Below are positions 1-10,430 of a stretch of DNA of 64,000 nt, in pieces (position 1 is the stretch's first letter; every line of letters starts with the position of its first letter). The position numbers and the translations under genes are program-made. Below the pieces are notes generated by a model. That model searched no databases, was not told the DNA's origin, and saw only the letters and a program-made list of their open reading frames with translations. Origin of the DNA: Escherichia coli (GTDB lineage: Bacteria; Pseudomonadota; Gammaproteobacteria; Enterobacterales; Enterobacteriaceae); the NCBI RefSeq assembly GCF_044324875.1, contig NZ_CP172185.1. One strand, 5' to 3'.

Positions 1-1483
1 TAATCCACCTTTCGGCGTGGACTGGAAAAAGATAGAAACCGACATCAACAACGAGCACAAACTCAAAGGTGCTGATGGTCGCTTTGGCCCCGGCCTGCCC
101 CGCGTCTCTGACGGTTCGTTGCTGTTTCTGCTGCACCTGATCAGCAAAATGCGCGATGCCAAAAGCGGTGGCGGGCGGATCGGCATCATTCTTAATGGTT
201 CCCCATTATTTACCGGCGGCGCGGGCAGCGGTGAAAGCGAGATCCGCCGCTACATTCTGGAAGCGGATTTGCTGGAAGGCATTATCGCCCTGCCCACCGA
301 CATGTTTTACAACACCGGTATCGCTACCTATGTTTGGGTGCTGTCCAACAAAAAAGCGCCAGAACGCAAAGGCAAAGTCCAGCTTATCGACGGCAGCAAC
401 CTGTGCGGCAAGATGCGTAAATCGCTGGGGTCAAAACGCAATATTCTCGGAGACGAGGATATTGGTTTAATCACCCGCACGTTTGGCGATTTCGAACCCG
501 TTGCCACCACTACGCTTGCGGCGTTAGGCCTGGAGAAAGCACCCGAACAAAAATCCAGCCGGGGACGCCAGCCCGCAACAACCAAAACCGAGGCGGCAAA
601 AACTTTTGCCAGCAAAGTCTTTCACAGCACCGAGTTTGGCTATCGTCGCATCACCGTTGAGCGCCCGTTACGCCTGTCGGCTCAGATAAGTGATGACGCC
701 ATTGCCACATTACGTTTTGCGCCGAAGCCGTTTAACGCTCCGATGGCGCAACTGTATGACGCCTTTGCTTTCCAGTGGCAGGACGGTCATTACGGCGACT
801 TAACAGCGGTAGAAAGTGAAGCCCGCGCCATTCTTAAAGCCGATTTTAGCGAGCTGAAAGAGAAGCAAATTAAAGATCTGCTCGACAGCAAATTATGGCT
901 GGCCCAGCGCGGGTTAATGGAAAAAGCGCGGCGTATTCAGGCGGCGATGGGTATGCAGGCGGGCGGCAAAGACACCGTTAGCAATGACTTTAATCAGTTC
1001 CAGTTGACGCTGAAAGAGGCGTTCAAAACCGCAGGCGTGAAGCTGGATGCGAAAGAGAACAAGCAGTTTATCGATGCTATCACCCGCAAAAACCCGGACG
1101 CCGAGCCGGTAGTCAGCAAGGTACTGAAAGAAGCGGCCCAACCGTTGTACGGCGCGTTTGAGTACCACGGAAAGGTTGTGGAGTTTGAGCCGGATGGCGA
1201 CCTGCGTGATAACGAGAATGTGCCGTTAAATCCGGCGGTATCTACCAGCGAGTTGATCGAGGGTTACTTCAAAGCAGAAGTATTGCCGCACGTCGCGGAT
1301 GCGTGGATTAACGCCGATAAGCGCGATGCGAAAGATGGGGATATCGGGATTGTGGGGTATGAAATTCCGTTTAATCGCCATTTTTATGTTTATCAACCGC
1401 CAAGGCCGCTGGAGGAGATTGATGCGGATCTGGATGCAGTAAGCGCTGAAATTATGAAACTGTTGCAGGAGGTACATTCCTGA
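1..1483 (+). CDS. hsdM: Type I restriction-modification N6-adenine DNA methyltransferase subunit (HsdM), 5' end truncated by window edge
   Basis: Reading frame is open from position 2; first codons encode NPPFG (gamma-class N6A-MTase motif IV). About 488 aa follow the motif, giving a long C-terminal extension compared with EcoKI-type HsdM. Stop TGA overlaps the ATG of the next gene by 1 nt. Confidence 0.85.
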
Positions 1484-2772
1484 TGGCAGGGTTAAATAAA
1501 TATCAGGCGTATCCGGAGTATAGGGATTCTGGGGTGGAGTGGATCGATGCAATCCCTTTTCATTGGGAAGTGCTACCAACATTTTCTCTATGTGAGGCAT
1601 CGACGAAGAAAAATATCGATGGAGCAGAAAACAATGTGCTCTCATTGAGTTATGGAAAAATTATTCCCAGAGATATAGAAACAAACTTCGGGCTTTTACC
1701 AGAGTCATTTAATACTTATCAAATCGTTGAAAATGGCGATATTATTTTAAGATTAACTGATCTACAAAATGATAAAAACAGTTTACGCGTAGGATTAGTC
1801 AAACAAAAAGGGATTATTACATCTGCATATTTAAAACTCAATTCACAAGGAAGTATGCTATCCGAATATTTATATCGCCTACTTCATTCATATGATACGA
1901 CTAAAGTTTTTTATGGCATGGGAGGAGGGCTGAGACAATCAATGAAATTTGAGGATTTCAGAAGATTGCCCTTACTGCTTCCATCGAAAAACGAACAGGG
2001 AAAAATAATTGATTTCCTCGACCACGAAACAGCAAAAATCGATAACCTGATCGAAAAACAACAACAACTTATTGAACTACTGAAAGAAAAACGTCAGGCA
2101 GTGATTAGCCATGCGGTGACCAAAGGGCTAAATCCTGATGTGCCGATGAAAGATTCTGGGGTTGAGTGGTTGGGTGAAGTTCCGAAACACTGGCACATAT
2201 GCAAGTTAAAATGGTTTGCTAATTTGAAAAGTGGTGATTTTATAACCAGCAATTCAATAGAACCAGAAGGAAACTATCCTGTTTATGGTGGAAATGGATT
2301 AAGAGGATATTATTCTCATTTTACACACAATGGTGAATATGTTCTTATTGGTAGACAAGGTGCTCTTTGCGGAAATATAAATTACGCAATTGGAAAATTT
2401 TGGGCTTCAGAACATGCTGTTGTTGTCACCCCAAACGAAAGAGCTGTTACAATATGGTTAGGAGAATTATTAAGAATAATGAACTTAAACCAATATTCAG
2501 TTTCTGCTGCACAACCGGGGCTTGCGGTTGAAAGAATTACTGATTTATATATTCCAATCCCACCATATCAAGAGCAAATAAATATCGGAACTTATATATC
2601 TAAATATATTTCTCTAGATAAAAAATTGATTGAGCATAGTACAGATAATATTGAACTCCTAAAAGAACGCCGCACCGCCCTTATCTCCGCCGCCGTCACC
2701 GGCAAAATCGACCTACGCAACTGGACCGCGCCCATCCCCGAAGCGGAAACACCCACGGAGGTCAGCGCATGA
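1483..2772 (+). CDS. hsdS: Type I R-M specificity subunit (HsdS), two target-recognition domains
   Basis: 429 aa; conserved central and C-terminal HsdS helices (KIDNLIEKQQQLIELLKEKRQAVISHAVTKG; RRTALISAAVTGKID); TRD motifs PVYGGNG...GALCGN; TRD-coding parts are AT-rich relative to the conserved parts; start overlaps hsdM stop, stop overlaps hsdR start (ATGA). Confidence 0.85.
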   Translation: MAGLNKYQAYPEYRDSGVEWIDAIPFHWEVLPTFSLCEASTKKNIDGAENNVLSLSYGKIIPRDIETNFGLLPESFNTYQIVENGDIILRLTDLQNDKNSLRVGLVKQKGIITSAYLKLNSQGSMLSEYLYRLLHSYDTTKVFYGMGGGLRQSMKFEDFRRLPLLLPSKNEQGKIIDFLDHETAKIDNLIEKQQQLIELLKEKRQAVISHAVTKGLNPDVPMKDSGVEWLGEVPKHWHICKLKWFANLKSGDFITSNSIEPEGNYPVYGGNGLRGYYSHFTHNGEYVLIGRQGALCGNINYAIGKFWASEHAVVVTPNERAVTIWLGELLRIMNLNQYSVSAAQPGLAVERITDLYIPIPPYQEQINIGTYISKYISLDKKLIEHSTDNIELLKERRTALISAAVTGKIDLRNWTAPIPEAETPTEVSA

Positions 2773-5700
2773 GCAACGACATAACAAAAGAGATCAACCT
2801 GCAAAACGACATCATCGCGCAGATGGCAGAAAAAGGCTGGATTGTCGGCAAAGGTGACGGCTACGACCGGGAACGAGCACTATACGCACAGGATACCTTA
2901 AACTTCGTACAAACCACCCAACCGCAAGAGTGGGAAAAATTCGCCCGCGTTTACCCCAACGACACCGAGCGCCATTTCCTCGACGCACTGGTCGCGCAGC
3001 TTAAAAAAGCCGACAGCAACGCCACCGATATTCAGTCGCGCACCAGGGGTACGCTCGGCGTACTTCGCCACGGCCTGAAAATCCGCAATGCCCGTTTTTC
3101 GCTGTGCCAGTTTAAACCGGAACATAATCTCAACCCGGAAACGCTGGCGCGCTATCAGCAGAATATCTGCCGCATTGTGCCGGAACTGATCTACAGCCCT
3201 TATGCCTCAAATAGCGTCTTTGCAGAAACGGGCGTGAAAGCCAAAAAATGGCGCATCGACCTGGTGCTGTTTATCAACGGCCTGCCAATTGCCACGCTGG
3301 AGCTGAAATCCGAATTCAAACAGGCGGTGCAGAACGCCATTGCGCAGTATAAAAAAACCCGCCTGCCGAAAGATCCCGCTACCAATAAGCCCGAACCGCT
3401 GCTGACCTTCAAGCGCGGGGCGCTGGTGCATTTTGCCGTCAGCCAGTATGACGTTTATATGACCACCAAACTCGTGGGTGACAGCACCTTCTTCCTGCCG
3501 TTTAACAAAGGCACCAAAGATGGTGGTGCAGGCAATGAGATCCCCGAAGATACCCACCGCTACGCCACCGATTATCTGTGGAATGAAGTACTGCTGCCGG
3601 ACAACTTATTAAAAATCCTCGCCAGTTTTGTCCATTTGCAGATTGAAGAAAAAGAGGAGTGGAACGGGCTGAAAGCGAAGAAAGAGAGCCTGATTTTCCC
3701 GCGCTATCACCAGTGGGATGTAGTCAACAAACTGCTGGAGGCCGCGACGGTCGAAGGCACCGGCCATAAATACCTGATCCAGCACAGCGCAGGTTCCGGA
3801 AAGTCGAACTCCATTGCCTGGACCGCCCACCAGCTTTCTCGTCTGTACGACGCAAACGGGGAAAAACAGTTTCATTCTGTTATCGTGGTGACGGACCGCA
3901 CAGTGCTGGACGACCAGCTTCAGGACGCCATCTGGCAGTTCGAGCACGCCGACGGCGTGGTCGGGCGCATCAATAATAGAGAGGGCGATGGCTCTAAATC
4001 GGAAAAGCTCGCCAACGCGCTGGAAAACTCGCAACCGATTATTATTGTCACCATCCAGACGTTCCCGTTCGTATTGAAAGCTATCGAAAACAGTGTCAGC
4101 CTGAAGCAGCGTAAATATGCGGTGATTGCCGACGAAGCACACTCCTCGCAGAGCGGTTCTACCGCCCGTCAGCTTAAAGAAGTGCTGATGAGCGAAGAGA
4201 TGGATGATGACGTGGTACTGTCGTCAGAAGATATTCTGGATGCGACCATCGCTGCACGGAAAGGCAGCAGTAACCTGAACTACTACGCCTTTACCGCCAC
4301 GCCAAAATCCAAAACCCTGGAACTCTTTGGTCGCTGTCCGCGTCCCGATGAGCCGGCCTCAAAAACCAATAAACCTGAGGCCTTCCACGTCTACTCCATG
4401 CGCCAGGCAATCGAAGAAGGCTTTATCCTCGACGTGCTGAAAAACTACACCAACTACAAAGTGGCGTATCAGTTGCTGCAAAAGCTGGAAGACAAGGACC
4501 GCGAAGTCGACAGCAAAAAGGCAAAGATAAAGCTCAACCAATGGGTGACACTGCACGACCACAACATCTCGCAGAAGGTGAAGGTGATTGTGGAGCACTT
4601 CCGCAAACATGTGATGCACCTGCTTGGCGGCCAGGCTAAAGCGATGGTGGTCACCAGTTCACGCAAAGCCGCTGTGCGCTACAAGCTGGCGTTTGATAAA
4701 TACATTAGCGAGAACAATTACCAGAAAATCAGCGCGATGGTGGCATTTTCCGGGGAAGTTGAATTCCAGGAAGGCGACCATAACAGCCTGGCATTGTTAA
4801 AGCAGAAATTTACTGAAATAAACATGAACCCCGGCCTGAAAGGGCGGGATATGCGCAAAGCCTTCGACAGCGATGATTATCAGGTGATGTTGGTCGCCAA
4901 TAAATTCCAGACCGGTTTTGACCAGCCAAAGCTGTGCGCGATGTACGTGGATAAACCCCTCGGTGGCGTCGAGTGCGTGCAGACACTCTCCCGCCTGAAC
5001 CGCACCTATCCGGGCAAAGCGGAATCGGGCACTTTTGTCCTCGATTTTTATAATGATCCGGACGAGATCCTCGGCGCATTCCAGCCCTATTTCCAGACGG
5101 CGGAACTGACCGATGTCAGCGATCCGCAGCAGGTATTCGATCTGTTTGAAAAACTGCGCGCCACGCAGATTTTTCAGTGGCATGAAGTCGAGCAGTTCTG
5201 CGAGGCGTACTTCATCAAAAATAAATCGAATGCGGCGATCAGTAATATCTGTAAACCGGCGGTCGAACGCTGGAAAAAGCGTTATCTGATGGCAATAGAC
5301 GCCTATTTGACCGCCAAAGAGATGTTCGAGCGCACTAAAAAAACGGGCGATACGGTGTTAATCACCAATGCGGAAAACAGTTTTAAAGCCTGTAAGCAGG
5401 AGAAAGATCGTCTGGAGATTTTCAAGAAAGATCTCGGCAGCTTTGTTCGCTTTTATGAGTTTATGTCGCAAATCGTTGAGTACGATGACAAGGATCTGGA
5501 AAAGCTAAGCCTGTTTGCCCGTCATCTGCGTCCGCTGCTGCATGAGCAACGTCTGGAAGAGGATGAAATTGATCTCAGTAATGTGGAGATGAGTCACTAT
5601 CGTTTATCGAAAATCCATGAGCAAGATTTACGCTTACAGGAAGAAACGTCTGACTATACGCTGGATGCAAGTAATGATATTGGTACGGCAAAAGCGAAAG

Positions 5701-6032
5701 ATAAAAAAGAGGAGTTTTTATCGCAGGTGCTTTCTCGGATGAATGAATTATTCATTAGCGACCATTTGACCGACAAAGATATGATCAGCAATGCTTTTGC
5801 GGTGTATAACAAAATAACTGAAAATGAAAATGTTATGACACAAATTAAAAACAATCCGCCAGAACAAGCGATTCTTGGTGATTTCCTCCAGGCAGTTGAT
5901 AATGCTGTAATGGACAGTAATGACGCTCGGCAAGAATTTATGTTGCAATATTTATCCGATCCAGTTCGGGCAAAGGGCTTTGCTTATCTGATGTTTGATA
6001 TGCTCACGGGGAAAATTGCTTTGCCAACATAA
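2769..6032 (+). CDS. hsdR: Type I R-M restriction subunit (HsdR), nuclease + SF2 helicase
   Basis: 1087 aa; N-terminal PD-(D/E)xK-like nuclease region (ATLELKSE), Walker A SAGSGKSN, DEAH box VIADEAHSSQ; ATGA overlap with hsdS. Confidence 0.9.
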   Translation: MSNDITKEINLQNDIIAQMAEKGWIVGKGDGYDRERALYAQDTLNFVQTTQPQEWEKFARVYPNDTERHFLDALVAQLKKADSNATDIQSRTRGTLGVLRHGLKIRNARFSLCQFKPEHNLNPETLARYQQNICRIVPELIYSPYASNSVFAETGVKAKKWRIDLVLFINGLPIATLELKSEFKQAVQNAIAQYKKTRLPKDPATNKPEPLLTFKRGALVHFAVSQYDVYMTTKLVGDSTFFLPFNKGTKDGGAGNEIPEDTHRYATDYLWNEVLLPDNLLKILASFVHLQIEEKEEWNGLKAKKESLIFPRYHQWDVVNKLLEAATVEGTGHKYLIQHSAGSGKSNSIAWTAHQLSRLYDANGEKQFHSVIVVTDRTVLDDQLQDAIWQFEHADGVVGRINNREGDGSKSEKLANALENSQPIIIVTIQTFPFVLKAIENSVSLKQRKYAVIADEAHSSQSGSTARQLKEVLMSEEMDDDVVLSSEDILDATIAARKGSSNLNYYAFTATPKSKTLELFGRCPRPDEPASKTNKPEAFHVYSMRQAIEEGFILDVLKNYTNYKVAYQLLQKLEDKDREVDSKKAKIKLNQWVTLHDHNISQKVKVIVEHFRKHVMHLLGGQAKAMVVTSSRKAAVRYKLAFDKYISENNYQKISAMVAFSGEVEFQEGDHNSLALLKQKFTEINMNPGLKGRDMRKAFDSDDYQVMLVANKFQTGFDQPKLCAMYVDKPLGGVECVQTLSRLNRTYPGKAESGTFVLDFYNDPDEILGAFQPYFQTAELTDVSDPQQVFDLFEKLRATQIFQWHEVEQFCEAYFIKNKSNAAISNICKPAVERWKKRYLMAIDAYLTAKEMFERTKKTGDTVLITNAENSFKACKQEKDRLEIFKKDLGSFVRFYEFMSQIVEYDDKDLEKLSLFARHLRPLLHEQRLEEDEIDLSNVEMSHYRLSKIHEQDLRLQEETSDYTLDASNDIGTAKAKDKKEEFLSQVLSRMNELFISDHLTDKDMISNAFAVYNKITENENVMTQIKNNPPEQAILGDFLQAVDNAVMDSNDARQEFMLQYLSDPVRAKGFAYLMFDMLTGKIALPT

Positions 6033-6044
6033 AACACGTTGATA

Positions 6045-6070
6045 GCCGGGGTCGCACTTTCTACCCCGGC
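6045..6070 (+). terminator. GC-rich hairpin downstream of hsdR (gccggggt-N10-accccggc)
   Basis: 8-bp perfect inverted repeat 13 nt after the hsdR stop; no strong T-run, so intrinsic-terminator function is uncertain. Confidence 0.35.
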
Positions 6071-6096
6071 CATATTGTTTACAATAAGGAATAGCT

Positions 6097-6810
6097 ATGC
6101 TGAAGATGATTAAAGATTTTAAATTCAAAAAATACATTAAAAAATTACGTGAAGAAGGTTTGTTTTTTTATGTTTCTTTCGGTTTTATATTTACATTGTT
6201 AATGGAAGTTGATAATCAATTACCATACTATCTTCAACAAGACTTCTTCTTTTATACACTTATAGGATTTATGCCAATCAATATATTCTTTGTTTTGATT
6301 TGCACAAATGTATTTTTCAATGCCGCCCACACACTTATTTCACCTTATAAAGGTCAAAGAGTTGGTGAGAAATTTCTCTCTGAACTTGATAAAAGAACGC
6401 AACAAATTGGCTTTATTATTTCATTTATATGTTTTGGCATGACATTGTTTTGTGCTCTGGCGTGGTTGCTGTTTTTTGAGATGAATAATGAAAGTTACTA
6501 CGCAAAATATACATTAGATTTTTTGGCTGTTTTTATCATTATGATTATGTTTTCTTCAGCAGTTAATCCAGTCATGAGAAGAATATTCCAAAAAATGAAG
6601 GGATCGGACTCACATGGAAATTCAAAAATAATTCTTATAATTATAATCATTGTGTTATTGCTATTATTGCCAATTGCGTACATTATCAATAAAAATAAAA
6701 CAATTGAAATCAATATTAAGAAAGAAACTTATCAGCAAATAAAAGAAAAAACAAAGATGAAACCAGAAGATTATATCAAAAAATTGATTGCTGATATTAA
6801 ATTCAACTAA
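6097..6810 (+). CDS. Hypothetical polytopic membrane protein, AT-rich (likely horizontally acquired)
   Basis: 237 aa ORF with AAGGA RBS 7-11 nt upstream of ATG; several long hydrophobic segments; lysine-rich termini; much lower GC than flanking genes. Confidence 0.55.
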   Translation: MLKMIKDFKFKKYIKKLREEGLFFYVSFGFIFTLLMEVDNQLPYYLQQDFFFYTLIGFMPINIFFVLICTNVFFNAAHTLISPYKGQRVGEKFLSELDKRTQQIGFIISFICFGMTLFCALAWLLFFEMNNESYYAKYTLDFLAVFIIMIMFSSAVNPVMRRIFQKMKGSDSHGNSKIILIIIIIVLLLLLPIAYIINKNKTIEINIKKETYQQIKEKTKMKPEDYIKKLIADIKFN

Positions 6811-7227: not shown

Positions 7228-8640
7228 ATGACGCGTTATCAACATCTGGCGACTCTGCTTGCCGAGCGGATTGAGCAGGGGCTGTATCGTCACGGGGAGA
7301 AATTGCCGTCGGTGCGCAGCTTAAGTCAGGAGCACGGCGTCAGCATCAGCACCGTGCAGCAGGCGTATCAGACGCTGGAGACGATGAAGCTCATCACCCC
7401 ACAGCCGCGTTCGGGTTATTTTGTCGCACAACGTAAAGCCCAGCCGCCAGTGCCGCCGATGACGCGTCCGGTGCAGCGCCCGGTGGAAATTACCCAGTGG
7501 GATCAGGTGCTGGATATGCTGGAGGCGCATAGCGACAGTTCCATTGTTCCGTTAAGTAAAAGCACGCCGGATGTCGAAACGCCCAGCCTGAAACCGCTGT
7601 GGCGGGAGCTAAGCCGGGTGGTGCAGCATAATCTGCAAACCGTTCTCGGTTATGACTTGTTAGCCGGTCAGCGAGTGTTGCGAGAGCAGATTGCCCGCCT
7701 GATGCTCGACAGCGGCTCGGTGGTCACTGCCGATGACATCATCATCACCAGCGGCTGCCATAACTCGATGTCGCTGGCGTTAATGGCGGTGTGTAAACCG
7801 GGCGATATTGTCGCGGTCGAATCCCCCTGTTATTACGGTTCGATGCAGATGCTGCGTGGCATGGGCGTGAAAGTGATTGAAATCCCAACCGATCCAGAAA
7901 CAGGCATCAGCGTTGAAGCGCTGGAACTGGCGCTGGAACAGTGGCCGATTAAAGGCATCATTCTGGTGCCAAACTGTAATAATCCGCTGGGATTTATTAT
8001 GCCGGACGCGCGCAAACGGGCCGTTCTCTCTCTCGCTCAGCGTCATGATATTGTGATTTTTGAAGATGATGTCTACGGCGAACTGGCAACGGAGTATCCG
8101 CGCCCGCGGACCATTCATTCCTGGGATATCGACGGGCGAGTGCTGTTGTGCAGCTCATTCAGTAAAAGTATTGCACCTGGCCTGCGCGTGGGTTGGGTCG
8201 CACCGGGGCGTTATCACGATAAACTGATGCATATGAAATACGCCATCAGCAGCTTTAATGTACCGTCCACGCAAATGGCGGCGGCAACGTTTGTGCTGGA
8301 AGGTCACTATCATCGCCATATCCGGCGGATGCGGCAGATCTATCAGCGCAATTTGGCGCTTTATACCTGCTGGATACGGGAATATTTTCCCTGCGAAATC
8401 TGCATTACGCGCCCGAAAGGCGGATTTTTACTGTGGATCGAATTGCCTGAACAGGTCGATATGGTCTGCGTCGCACGGCAGCTATACCGCATGAAAATCC
8501 AGGTGGCGGCAGGCTCGATTTTCTCAGCTTCCGGCAAATACCGTAATTGTCTGCGCATCAACTGCGCTTTGCCGCTCAGCGAAACCTATCGCGAAGCACT
8601 GAAGCAAATTGGCGAAGCCGTGTATCGGGCAATGGAATGA
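7228..8640 (+). CDS. yjiR: MocR-family transcriptional regulator (GntR-type HTH fused to aminotransferase-like domain)
   Basis: 470 aa; N-terminal winged-HTH (LPSVRSLSQEHGVSISTVQQAY), C-terminal PLP-fold aminotransferase-like domain including SFSKSIAPGLRVGW. Confidence 0.9.
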   Translation: MTRYQHLATLLAERIEQGLYRHGEKLPSVRSLSQEHGVSISTVQQAYQTLETMKLITPQPRSGYFVAQRKAQPPVPPMTRPVQRPVEITQWDQVLDMLEAHSDSSIVPLSKSTPDVETPSLKPLWRELSRVVQHNLQTVLGYDLLAGQRVLREQIARLMLDSGSVVTADDIIITSGCHNSMSLALMAVCKPGDIVAVESPCYYGSMQMLRGMGVKVIEIPTDPETGISVEALELALEQWPIKGIILVPNCNNPLGFIMPDARKRAVLSLAQRHDIVIFEDDVYGELATEYPRPRTIHSWDIDGRVLLCSSFSKSIAPGLRVGWVAPGRYHDKLMHMKYAISSFNVPSTQMAAATFVLEGHYHRHIRRMRQIYQRNLALYTCWIREYFPCEICITRPKGGFLLWIELPEQVDMVCVARQLYRMKIQVAAGSIFSASGKYRNCLRINCALPLSETYREALKQIGEAVYRAME

Positions 8641-8757: not shown

Positions 8758-8857
8758 GCCGGATGCCATGTGAACGCCTTACCAGGTCTACAAAATTTTT
8801 AAAGTTCAATATATTTAATGGGTTATGTAGACCTGATAAGCGTAGCACATCAGGCAG
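8758..8857. repeat. REP/BIME-type palindromic units (two REP-like elements in opposite orientation)
   Basis: gccggatgccatgtgaacgccttaccaggtctac and gtagacctgataagcgtagcacatcaggca resemble the E. coli REP consensus. Confidence 0.55.
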
Positions 8858-8882
8858 TTTTGCGTTTGTCATCAGTCTCTGA

Positions 8883-9964
8883 TTAGTACTCGATCCATGG
8901 ATCGCGCTTGCTTTCAGGCAAGGGCTGATCTAATGCCTGCATTTGCTCTGCCGAAAGTCCGGTATATCGTTGTATCCATTCAGGATCCGCCCCATTCTGC
9001 AACAACAATCGGAGGAGGCTCCGTTCCCCTTCTACTTTCCCTTCTTTCCTCCCCCTCTCCCTTCCCAACAGCCATCCATCATTATGAATTCGCTCTGCAA
9101 TCGTCATTATTCGCTCCCTTTGTTGTGGCATTCGACTGGTTAGTTCGCTGATAAACTCTTTAAAACGCGCTTCATCGCCAGTCAGTAAAATGTAATTTAA
9201 CAGCGCAGTTATCTGGCTGTCATTAGTACACTCTGTAACCAGTAATACTACCAGTTGGTCGATAAGCCCCATCAGATCGCGCTGGCGAATATGCTTTTGG
9301 ATCAACTCCAACAGGGCGACTCTGCGGTGCTGCACAATCTCGTCGTCTGGCACGACAGTGATATCCACCAGCGGGAACGCGGCGGTATATACTCGTCATA
9401 CTTCAAGTTGCATGTGCTGCGACTGCGTTCATTCACCCCAGTCACTTACTTTTGTAAGCTCCTGGGGATTCACTCACTTGTCGCCTTCCTGCAACTTGAA
9501 TTATTTAGAGTATAAAGCTTCCGTGCGGTGGTCGGGTCAGCAAATTCGTCCAGCCAGCACAGGGACCAGGGGTAAGGACTACGGCTACCGTGATAAAACA
9601 GCATCGGGATGACCAGCGGTAGCGGCCGGCGTTTATCATGCTCGATATGGCGCTGCATCACCGCCATGGAATATCGCATCAGGCGAAAGGCCATATGGAT
9701 ATCCTCGCGGCTCTGATGTTCAATCACTACGTAAATATAACCATCACCTTCACGGGTCTTTACCGACCACAGAATATCAGAGTGTAGCGCCCGCAATTTT
9801 TCATCGACAAAGCTGGCGGATTCCAGTTTTAAGCTGTCGAGATCGCACAATTCACGTAAATCTATTGGTAAGTGGATCTCCATAAAATCCCGCGCGGTGT
9901 CAGGGTGGGTGAGAAAGGATTTAAATAATGCGTCATGCGGCGTACTGGTCGTGAAGTTTGTCAT
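8883..9964 (-). pseudogene. rpnD: Rpn-family (YhgA-like, PD-(D/E)xK) recombination-promoting nuclease gene split into two frames (yjiP + yjiQ fragments)
   Basis: N-terminal fragment 9470..9964 ([18 protein letters not shown]...) and C-terminal fragment 8883..9368 are in different frames separated by ~100 bp; same split arrangement as the K-12 yjiP/yjiQ pseudogene. Confidence 0.65.
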
Positions 9965-10430
9965 GGCGATCCGTCACCTGTTGATAAGATGGCCCGACTT
10001 TAGCGACTAACAAAACCATTCTCACCCGGCAATTTCCCGTTCCCCGAGGCGCTTTCCAGGCTATTTTTGTTCTTCTGCAAACGATACATTTTTCCGGAAA
10101 CAGGCTCGCGTTTTACATGTCCTGTACCCGGCAGATATTCCTCTTTCCACCGCGCTCTTTTGATTAACCGCAAATTTTAATTACACTTAAGGTGTATATT
10201 TTCTATGCAACCCATCAATTCAAGAGGTGTAATGTGCTGATGACTATTTGTAATCGTTATACATTCTGACCAGAACTCAGAAGGTATTTCTCTGTCTGTA
10301 TAAGCACAGGCAGTGTGGTTGATTACATGAAATTCAGTACATTTGTCCTTCTCGCCTGCCTTTCGTCATTACCGACGGTATTGAATTTCGTTTTCCCCAT
10401 TGGGGTTCTCCGGACAAGGAGTTGTTTGTT

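Follow-up and report, generated by a model that had tools for sequence, protein, structure and literature searches.

An ERIC insertion splits the rpnD gene of Escherichia coli and has probably spread recently among divergent alleles

The window analysed here, a stretch of 64,000 nucleotides from Escherichia coli (contig NZ_CP172185.1), contains on its minus strand two neighbouring ORFs of 164 aa (9470-9964) and 161 aa (8883-9368), which lie in different frames and are separated by a spacer of 101 nt (9369-9469). An earlier note on this DNA had taken them for the two halves of one Rpn-family gene split over two frames about 100 bp apart, had identified the gene as rpnD (yjiP/yjiQ), a known pseudogene in K-12, and had proposed that the lesion is old and shared with K-12 rather than strain-specific. 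Which gene is this, what has broken it, is the break the one carried by K-12, and what may still be made from the locus?

The first question can be answered plainly. The N-terminal fragment matches Pfam PF04754 (Transposase_31, YhgA-like) over profile positions 1-144 (220 bits, E = 3e-65) and the C-terminal fragment matches it over positions 150-202 (44.5 bits, E = 1.8e-11), an agreement far above chance in both cases. Since the two matches cover adjoining stretches of one profile, the ORFs are consecutive parts of a single Rpn-family domain and gene, as the earlier note had supposed. The flanking genes are yjiR (7228-8640, plus strand) and mdtM (10422-11663, plus strand), and the order yjiR-rpnD-mdtM is the same in annotated E. 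coli genomes and in MG1655. At the protein level, the gene of the window is more than 95% identical to rpnD alleles versus 56-57% to RpnA. Synteny and identity together indicate that it is the rpnD orthologue and not another rpn paralogue.

The lesion was located by alignment with an intact allele (NZ_CP145707; WP_077501825, 318 aa), a K-12-like strain and MG1655, RpnA also being aligned. It is a net insertion of 125 nt, an ERIC element, after codon 150. Compared with the intact allele, the window has exactly 125 extra bases at this point, with TATA at each junction; the gap can be placed in six equivalent ways, which together with the TATA junctions fits a TA target duplication. The empty site reads CTT-TA-TACC and the filled site CTT-[TA...TA]-TACC, so that the net gain is 127 minus 2, or 125. 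The junction sequences of rpnD::ERIC are CGGAARCTTTATACTCTAAAT and GACGAGTATATACCGC. The insertion point is a TA in codons 151/152, and the element is missing from intact alleles at exactly that point. The resulting parts are as follows.

9515..9964, minus strand: 5′ part of rpnD, codons 1-150, with the PD-(D/E)XK nuclease core (PF04754 match and RpnA alignment)
9388..9514, RU-1 orientation on the plus strand: full-length 127-nt ERIC/IRU/RU-1 element (TATAC...GTATA), including the duplicated TA at both ends (consensus alignment)
9470..9514, minus strand: ERIC-encoded 14-residue tail of the cut-off product and its TGA stop at 9472-9470 (translation)
8883..9389, minus strand: 3′ part of rpnD, codons 151/152-318 and stop (PF04754 match, ORF restoration and RpnA alignment)

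The true rpnD coding sequence therefore extends up to 9515 and resumes from about 9389/9387, while the N-terminal ORF owes its final 12-14 codons and its stop to the inserted element. The first two ERIC-encoded tail residues coincide with the native Y151 and T152. Read in the rpnD frame, the element supplies 12 foreign codons and then TGA, and the frame downstream is shifted by 125 nt. The 3′ part, which holds the non-core Transposase_31 region with the PDDE motif and a variable C-terminal tail, is thus out of frame with the 5′ part. The GTG at 9368, where the listed C-terminal ORF begins, is merely the first start codon past a stop and not a genuine start. When the 125 bases are deleted in silico, a 957-nt ORF of 318 codons is recovered, collinear with intact alleles; the restored protein has 9 substitutions relative to WP_077501825 and no further defect. 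A single ORF free of indels, which would have made the fragments two independent genes, was looked for and none can be rebuilt. Because the insertion lies within a conserved ORF, its direction is unambiguous: the element was gained by the disrupted alleles, not lost by the intact ones. In short, an ERIC insertion into rpnD is the cause of the split. There is no uninterrupted RpnL ORF, and with regard to the full-length RpnL protein the locus is a pseudogene, as previously noted, its reading frame being broken by the insertion. The mechanism of insertion we infer from the structure of the junctions.

The element itself is typical of its family. In gap-free comparison it is identical to the E. 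coli RU-1 consensus at 110/127 positions and to Salmonella SeRU-1 at 117/127 (87-92%), the reference sequences being those of Delihas 2007 (PMC2759123). Its terminal inverted-repeat arms (9388-9412 and 9490-9514) have 25 nt each and are 84% complementary, and the RNA of the element folds into one long hairpin with a minimum free energy of -56.2 kcal/mol (z = -10.7). ERIC is not represented in Rfam by a family of its own; RF02818 gives a sub-threshold match. ERIC/IRU elements are described as 127 bp long with terminal inverted repeats, TA termini and TA target duplication (Delihas 2007/2008, PMC2759123). The rpnD copy resembles the known ERIC/IRU/RU-1 elements (Sharples & Lloyd 1990; Hulton 1991; Wilson & Sharp 2006; Delihas 2007) in its length of 127 nt, its imperfect palindrome, its TATAC...GTATA ends, the TA duplication and the presence of several copies per genome: the element portion of our query has a median of 6-7 matches per genome and is found in nearly every E. 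coli genome, although only one copy lies within the 64-kb window. It differs in its location. ERICs are typically intergenic, and intragenic cases are mostly in-frame fusions near the 3′ ends of genes, outside conserved domains (Delihas). Intergenic placement is usual rather than a structural requirement; this copy lies inside codons 151/152 of rpnD, within the conserved domain, in the orientation with stop codons, and destroys the gene. Read in the published RU-1 orientation, it lies on the plus strand, antisense to rpnD. On that strand, the element creates two mechanical ORFs of 86 and 84 aa (window 9255-9612), which contain the RU-1f and RU-1 peptide sequences described for ERIC by Delihas; their status as genes is unsupported. 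In Yersinia, how fast an upstream transcript decays depends on how the ERIC is oriented.

The distribution of the insertion was determined with a 247-nt query spanning both junctions (coverage of at least 80%) in 5,426 complete E. coli genomes. The view that the lesion is shared and not strain-specific stands only in part: there are several carriers, but they amount to 33 of the 5,426 genomes (0.6%), together with some draft E. coli genomes, metagenome contigs and E. albertii. Intact 318-aa rpnD alleles are very common, one cluster member being present on at least 1,000 contigs. No complete E. coli genome matches the window at 99% or more, even across 20 kb of core genes. The window is 100% identical to a draft assembly over 6.3 kb, draft E. 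coli assemblies contain its exact allele, and the 164-aa cut-off product is exactly the E. coli RefSeq protein WP_409406296.1.

Comparison of the carriers provides an estimate of relative age. Among seven E. coli carrier sequences representing about five distinct alleles (the window, CP55_Sichuan/STEC1587, MB52, E308 and three metagenome contigs), the insert is identical at 125/125 positions. The rpnD flanks of carriers with the identical insert differ by 4-7%, and at that divergence, zero differences in 125 nt would be expected with a probability of 1e-4 to 6e-3 for each pair. Most of the differences in the flanks are synonymous (dN/dS 0.05-0.27, dS up to 0.26); taking out the element leaves every carrier with an intact ORF, and the fragments contain no other stops or frameshifts. 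An invariant insert on divergent flanks means that the divergence of the alleles is older than the insertion and that the insertion is recent. The lesion is therefore young, and its presumed old age has to be abandoned. An ancient insertion followed by repeated precise excision is ruled out by the zero divergence of the element. One further copy should be mentioned separately. In E. coli BS-01 (NZ_CP172816), the insert is 117 nt long and shows 12 mismatches and small deletions; with it, rpnD is back in frame but contains stops. We considered a decayed or domesticated element and set this aside, since the changes (many of them to A, and loss in homopolymers) suggest sequencing or assembly error.

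The insertion is also present in E. albertii, in a metagenome contig (L016, 2467-3524) that agrees with E. coli in both its site and its orientation and is identified as E. albertii by its YjiL, WP_273781399.1. The 164-aa product of the E. albertii allele occurs on 21 contigs, one of them of 4.8 Mb. The element is 125/127 identical to that of the window, whereas the neighbouring genes are only about 88% identical. Compared with an E. albertii allele that lacks the element (L020, 310 aa), the carrier shows no difference over 430 nt, from -450 to -20, and then seven differences between -19 and +11 around the element, mostly E. coli-like (DPATARKLYT/AAF versus DPLIARKRYTDEF); E. albertii-specific states are back by +33. 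Such clustering of seven differences has a probability of about 2e-7. On the evidence of a single carrier haplotype and two ERIC-less alleles of E. albertii, it is well supported that a patch of about 160-215 nt from an E. coli-type allele would have brought the element into E. albertii by recombination. Site and orientation are the same in all carrier alleles examined. Both this constancy and the E. coli-like patch speak for one insertion that was then passed on by short-tract recombination, and we regard as well supported the inference that a single recent insertion moved by short-tract homologous recombination onto divergent E. coli alleles and into E. albertii. In E. coli carriers, flank differences come as close to the element as 4 nt (upstream) and 9 nt (downstream), so that the tracts would have to be very short or point changes would have followed later. 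The short patches might also stem from mismatch-repair editing beside the element; long-patch repair would tend to remove the loop too.

The strongest competitor of a single insertion is recurrent site-specific transposition, in which an active master copy would have inserted independently into one and the same TA of rpnD, both in several alleles of E. coli and in E. albertii. It would readily account for an identical element in flanks that differ only 4-9 nt away, and the subtype has indeed moved in recent times. An ERIC copy between ppa and chpB (L015, 223-353, in the E. coli metagenome contig OFLS01000250.1; the empty site is seen in E. coli SMS-3-5, L023) is 125/127 identical to the rpnD insert. 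This site is occupied in 116 of the 5,426 complete E. coli genomes, as a clean 125-nt gain at a TA, and such polymorphism indicates that this ERIC subtype was mobile recently. Judged by its sequence, the ppa-chpB copy is possibly a relative of the source element. However, the uniform orientation in rpnD is unexpected at a palindromic TA unless insertion is biased in orientation, the E. albertii carrier shows an E. coli-like patch rather than pure E. albertii flanks, and no target motif other than TA is known for ERIC (Delihas). A master copy with the exact sequence is also missing from the 100,044 species-representative genomes, in which a variant-specific 46-mer of the insert has no match; in metagenome contigs, the same 46-mer is found five times, four times at the rpnD site and once at ppa-chpB. 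Taken together, we find recurrent transposition unlikely.

We return to the single insertion and to what it would leave of the function of rpnD. Rpn proteins are PD-(D/E)XK DNA endonucleases, toxic on overexpression (Kingston et al. 2017, PMC5350276). Zhong et al. 2023 (PMC10400941) reported that the long protein RpnL is a toxin and the short protein RpnS its antitoxin, made in the same frame from an internal promoter and start codon; RpnS proteins were detected for all five rpn genes of K-12, and M244 of RpnA is an experimentally confirmed internal start. The catalytic set of Rpn is defined by the residues mutated by Kingston et al. (PMC5350276). In alignment with K-12 RpnA, D11, D63, E82, Q84 and R94 are invariant and all lie in the N-terminal fragment. 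The conserved PDDE motif, likewise invariant with respect to RpnA, is in the C-terminal fragment, and the whole C-terminal tail is also past the insertion. RpnD without its last 45 residues is already far less active (Kingston et al. 2017, PMC5350276), so the 164-aa stub, by this analogy, is probably inactive as a nuclease.

Downstream of the element, the internal start of RpnD was placed by alignment with RpnA, and the following features are predicted.

8883..9107, minus strand: predicted rpnD_S gene-within-gene, 74 codons and stop (M245 aligns with RpnA M244)
9194..9223, minus strand: promoter-like site upstream of the rpnD_S start, ATGACA-18-TAAATT with TG (consensus scan)

The predicted RpnD_S would start at the ATG 9107-9105, with GGGAG upstream at 9118-9114, in a stretch about 280 nt downstream of the element. 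The 74-aa product would have a mass of about 8 kDa. It resembles PDB 7th0, the small protein of RpnA, weakly (E = 0.034), and a Pfam search at E of 0.01 or less found no family, DUF4351 included. Promoter-like sites occur in the scan at chance expectation, and 9194..9223 is identical in K-12; it is a weak candidate for the internal promoter. From these features, it appears that the locus has lost the toxin and probably still makes the small antitoxin RpnD_S.

The following scheme would combine these observations. The locus is the rpnD orthologue and belongs to a family whose long product is a toxic endonuclease and whose short product, from an internal start, is the antitoxin. In one event, a 127-nt ERIC entered the TA in codons 151/152 with TA duplication (net +125 nt) and shifted the frame. 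Translation stops 12 codons into the element, leaving a 164-aa product in which the catalytic core is preserved, while the conserved PDDE region and the C-terminal oligomerisation tail are missing. The single recent insertion would then have moved by short-tract recombination to divergent E. coli rpnD alleles and to E. albertii. The candidate internal promoter, the ribosome-binding site and the ATG of RpnD_S would be unchanged downstream, so that the antitoxin is probably kept. We consider this explanation as a whole, with ERIC disruption, spread and predicted retention of the antitoxin, highly probable.

In comparison with the RpnL/RpnS systems (Zhong et al. 2023, PMC10400941), the locus shares the N-terminal PD-(D/E)XK nuclease, a predicted internal start aligned with RpnA M244, a variable helix of four-aa repeats and nearby restriction-modification genes. 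It differs in that the toxin frame is broken upstream of the antitoxin start, leaving at most the antitoxin half. If RpnD_S is expressed, it would resemble the stand-alone RpnS genes (rpnE-ypaA and rpnC_Ss; DUF4351) as an orphan gene for a small antitoxin. However, the latter arose by duplication downstream of an intact rpn gene, whereas rpnD_S would be the leftover of its disrupted host gene.

The existence of such stand-alone genes raises the possibility that the split itself is functional and maintained, as a truncated nuclease plus a stand-alone C-terminal protein comparable to the rpnSs genes (ypaA by rpnE). Natural stand-alone RpnS-type genes are on record (Zhong et al. 2023, PMC10400941), both fragments are free of extra stops and frameshifts in all carrier alleles, and in some genomes the 164-aa fragment carries a RefSeq protein annotation. 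But intact fragments are predicted equally well by recent insertion alone. Moreover, the 161-aa ORF has no credible start, its GTG lacking a Shine-Dalgarno sequence; a stub of 150 residues is unlikely to be an active nuclease given that RpnD minus 45 residues is much less active; and the allele is rare (0.6%). A maintained split is thus very unlikely.

A different matter is whether the disrupted allele spread for a reason. As a ‘toxin-off, antitoxin-on’ allele, it could have spread by selection for shedding a self-harming nuclease with RpnD_S retained, or by biased transmission of the hairpin-forming insert. Either would explain why a patch with an invariant element is found on at least five divergent rpnD alleles and across species; the proposal is nevertheless rather unlikely to be correct.

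The relationship to K-12 is now easily stated. The rpnD gene of MG1655 (b4584, formerly yjiP/yjiQ, annotated as a pseudogene) occupies the same mdtM/yjiR locus and, like that of the window, gives no full-length protein from the reference sequence. It contains no ERIC and is in a single frame, interrupted by a CAG to TAG change (Gln104 amber). A K-12-like lab strain (annotated ‘internal stop’) likewise has no ERIC, one frame and TAG at codon 104. The window has CAG at this codon. The reading in which an old frameshift or deletion, the same as in K-12 rpnD, was inherited by descent draws on the pseudogene annotation in K-12 and the syntenic locus, but it is incompatible with the in-frame TAG and missing insertion of the two K-12 sequences, and with the CAG and the 125-nt ERIC of the window, undiverged among carriers; its probability is negligible. 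The proposal of a common lesion fails accordingly, and the difference between the two lesions implies that the two rpnD pseudogenes arose independently.

The internal RpnS start region is identical in the window and in K-12 rpnD. Apart from the amber codon and the missing ERIC, K-12 rpnD is three four-aa repeats short of the gene in the window and diverges from it at the C-terminal end. The repeat difference corresponds to the following stretch.

9038..9073, minus strand: 36 nt (12 aa) absent from K-12, in the predicted first helix of RpnS (alignments)

This 12-aa stretch begins 12 residues past M245, and four-aa repeats have been reported 8-20 residues after the RpnS start (Zhong et al. 2023, PMC10400941). 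The repeat number also varies among ERIC carriers, with 0, 2 or 3 extra 12-nt units. By its sequence, the 36-nt difference is repeat-number variation and not a lesion.

The K-12 gene presents a puzzle of its own. MG1655 rpnD (L004, 4999-5919) has TAG at codon 104, yet a construct of it was reported as toxic: the 921-nt ‘wild-type’ rpnD construct was toxic and promoted recombination (Kingston et al. 2017, PMC5350276). The available part of that text does not state the source of full-length RpnD from an amber-bearing gene. Speculatively, a Gln-inserting amber suppressor would restore the ancestral residue of RpnD.

An assembly artefact or chimera at a repeated element, which the multi-copy nature of ERIC and the garbled BS-01 copy might suggest, is next to impossible given identical junctions in 32 other complete genomes, independent drafts and metagenome contigs.

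A known gene family has here been hit by a known kind of mobile element, and as a gene-inactivation event this is ordinary. We found no description of an ERIC in rpnD in the literature on ERIC with Rpn, yjiP or yjiQ, and RefSeq labels the carriers’ fragments just as ‘partial’ Rpn pseudogenes. These labels invite equating them with the K-12 pseudogene, and the present data correct this: there have been at least two independent inactivations of rpnD, through an amber codon in K-12 and through ERIC in the window. The rpnD::ERIC allele is a clean example of recent ERIC mobility in Escherichia, backed by the polymorphic ppa-chpB copy. An invariant element on divergent alleles of two species also makes up a small natural record of what appears to be short-tract recombination beside a restriction-modification island. 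Finally, if RpnD_S is still made, the carriers would be natural ‘antitoxin-only’ strains, useful for studying the specificity of Rpn toxin-antitoxin pairs.

Some observations concern the neighbourhood of rpnD. A type I restriction-modification system (17-6032; hsdM cut by the window edge, hsdS and hsdR) and a 237-aa membrane-like ORF together occupy 17-6810 of the window, directly upstream of yjiS/yjiR. The position of this system is taken by yjiT in K-12 and by a penicillin G acylase gene in other strains. rpnD lies about 3 kb from the system, which fits the finding of Zhong et al. 2023 (PMC10400941) that rpn genes cluster with defence genes. In E. albertii (L016, L020 and L021), mdtM, yjiR and yjiS are absent and rpnD is directly beside yjiN on one side; the other side varies by strain and holds an mcrC-like gene, GmrSD or yjiA/yjiX/cstA. 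With these varying neighbours, rpnD marks the border of a variable defence island. The rpnD alleles within E. coli are as divergent from each other (dS up to 0.26) as from E. albertii alleles.

On the other side of the gene, Rfam ES036/CssrF gives a sub-threshold match at 8792-8834 on the plus strand (32.6 bits, the threshold being 37.6). The spacer that separates yjiR from the stop codon of rpnD (window about 8790-8870) bears on its minus strand a palindrome, TGCCTGATGTGCTACGCTTATCAGGTCTACA, which we take to be REP-like.
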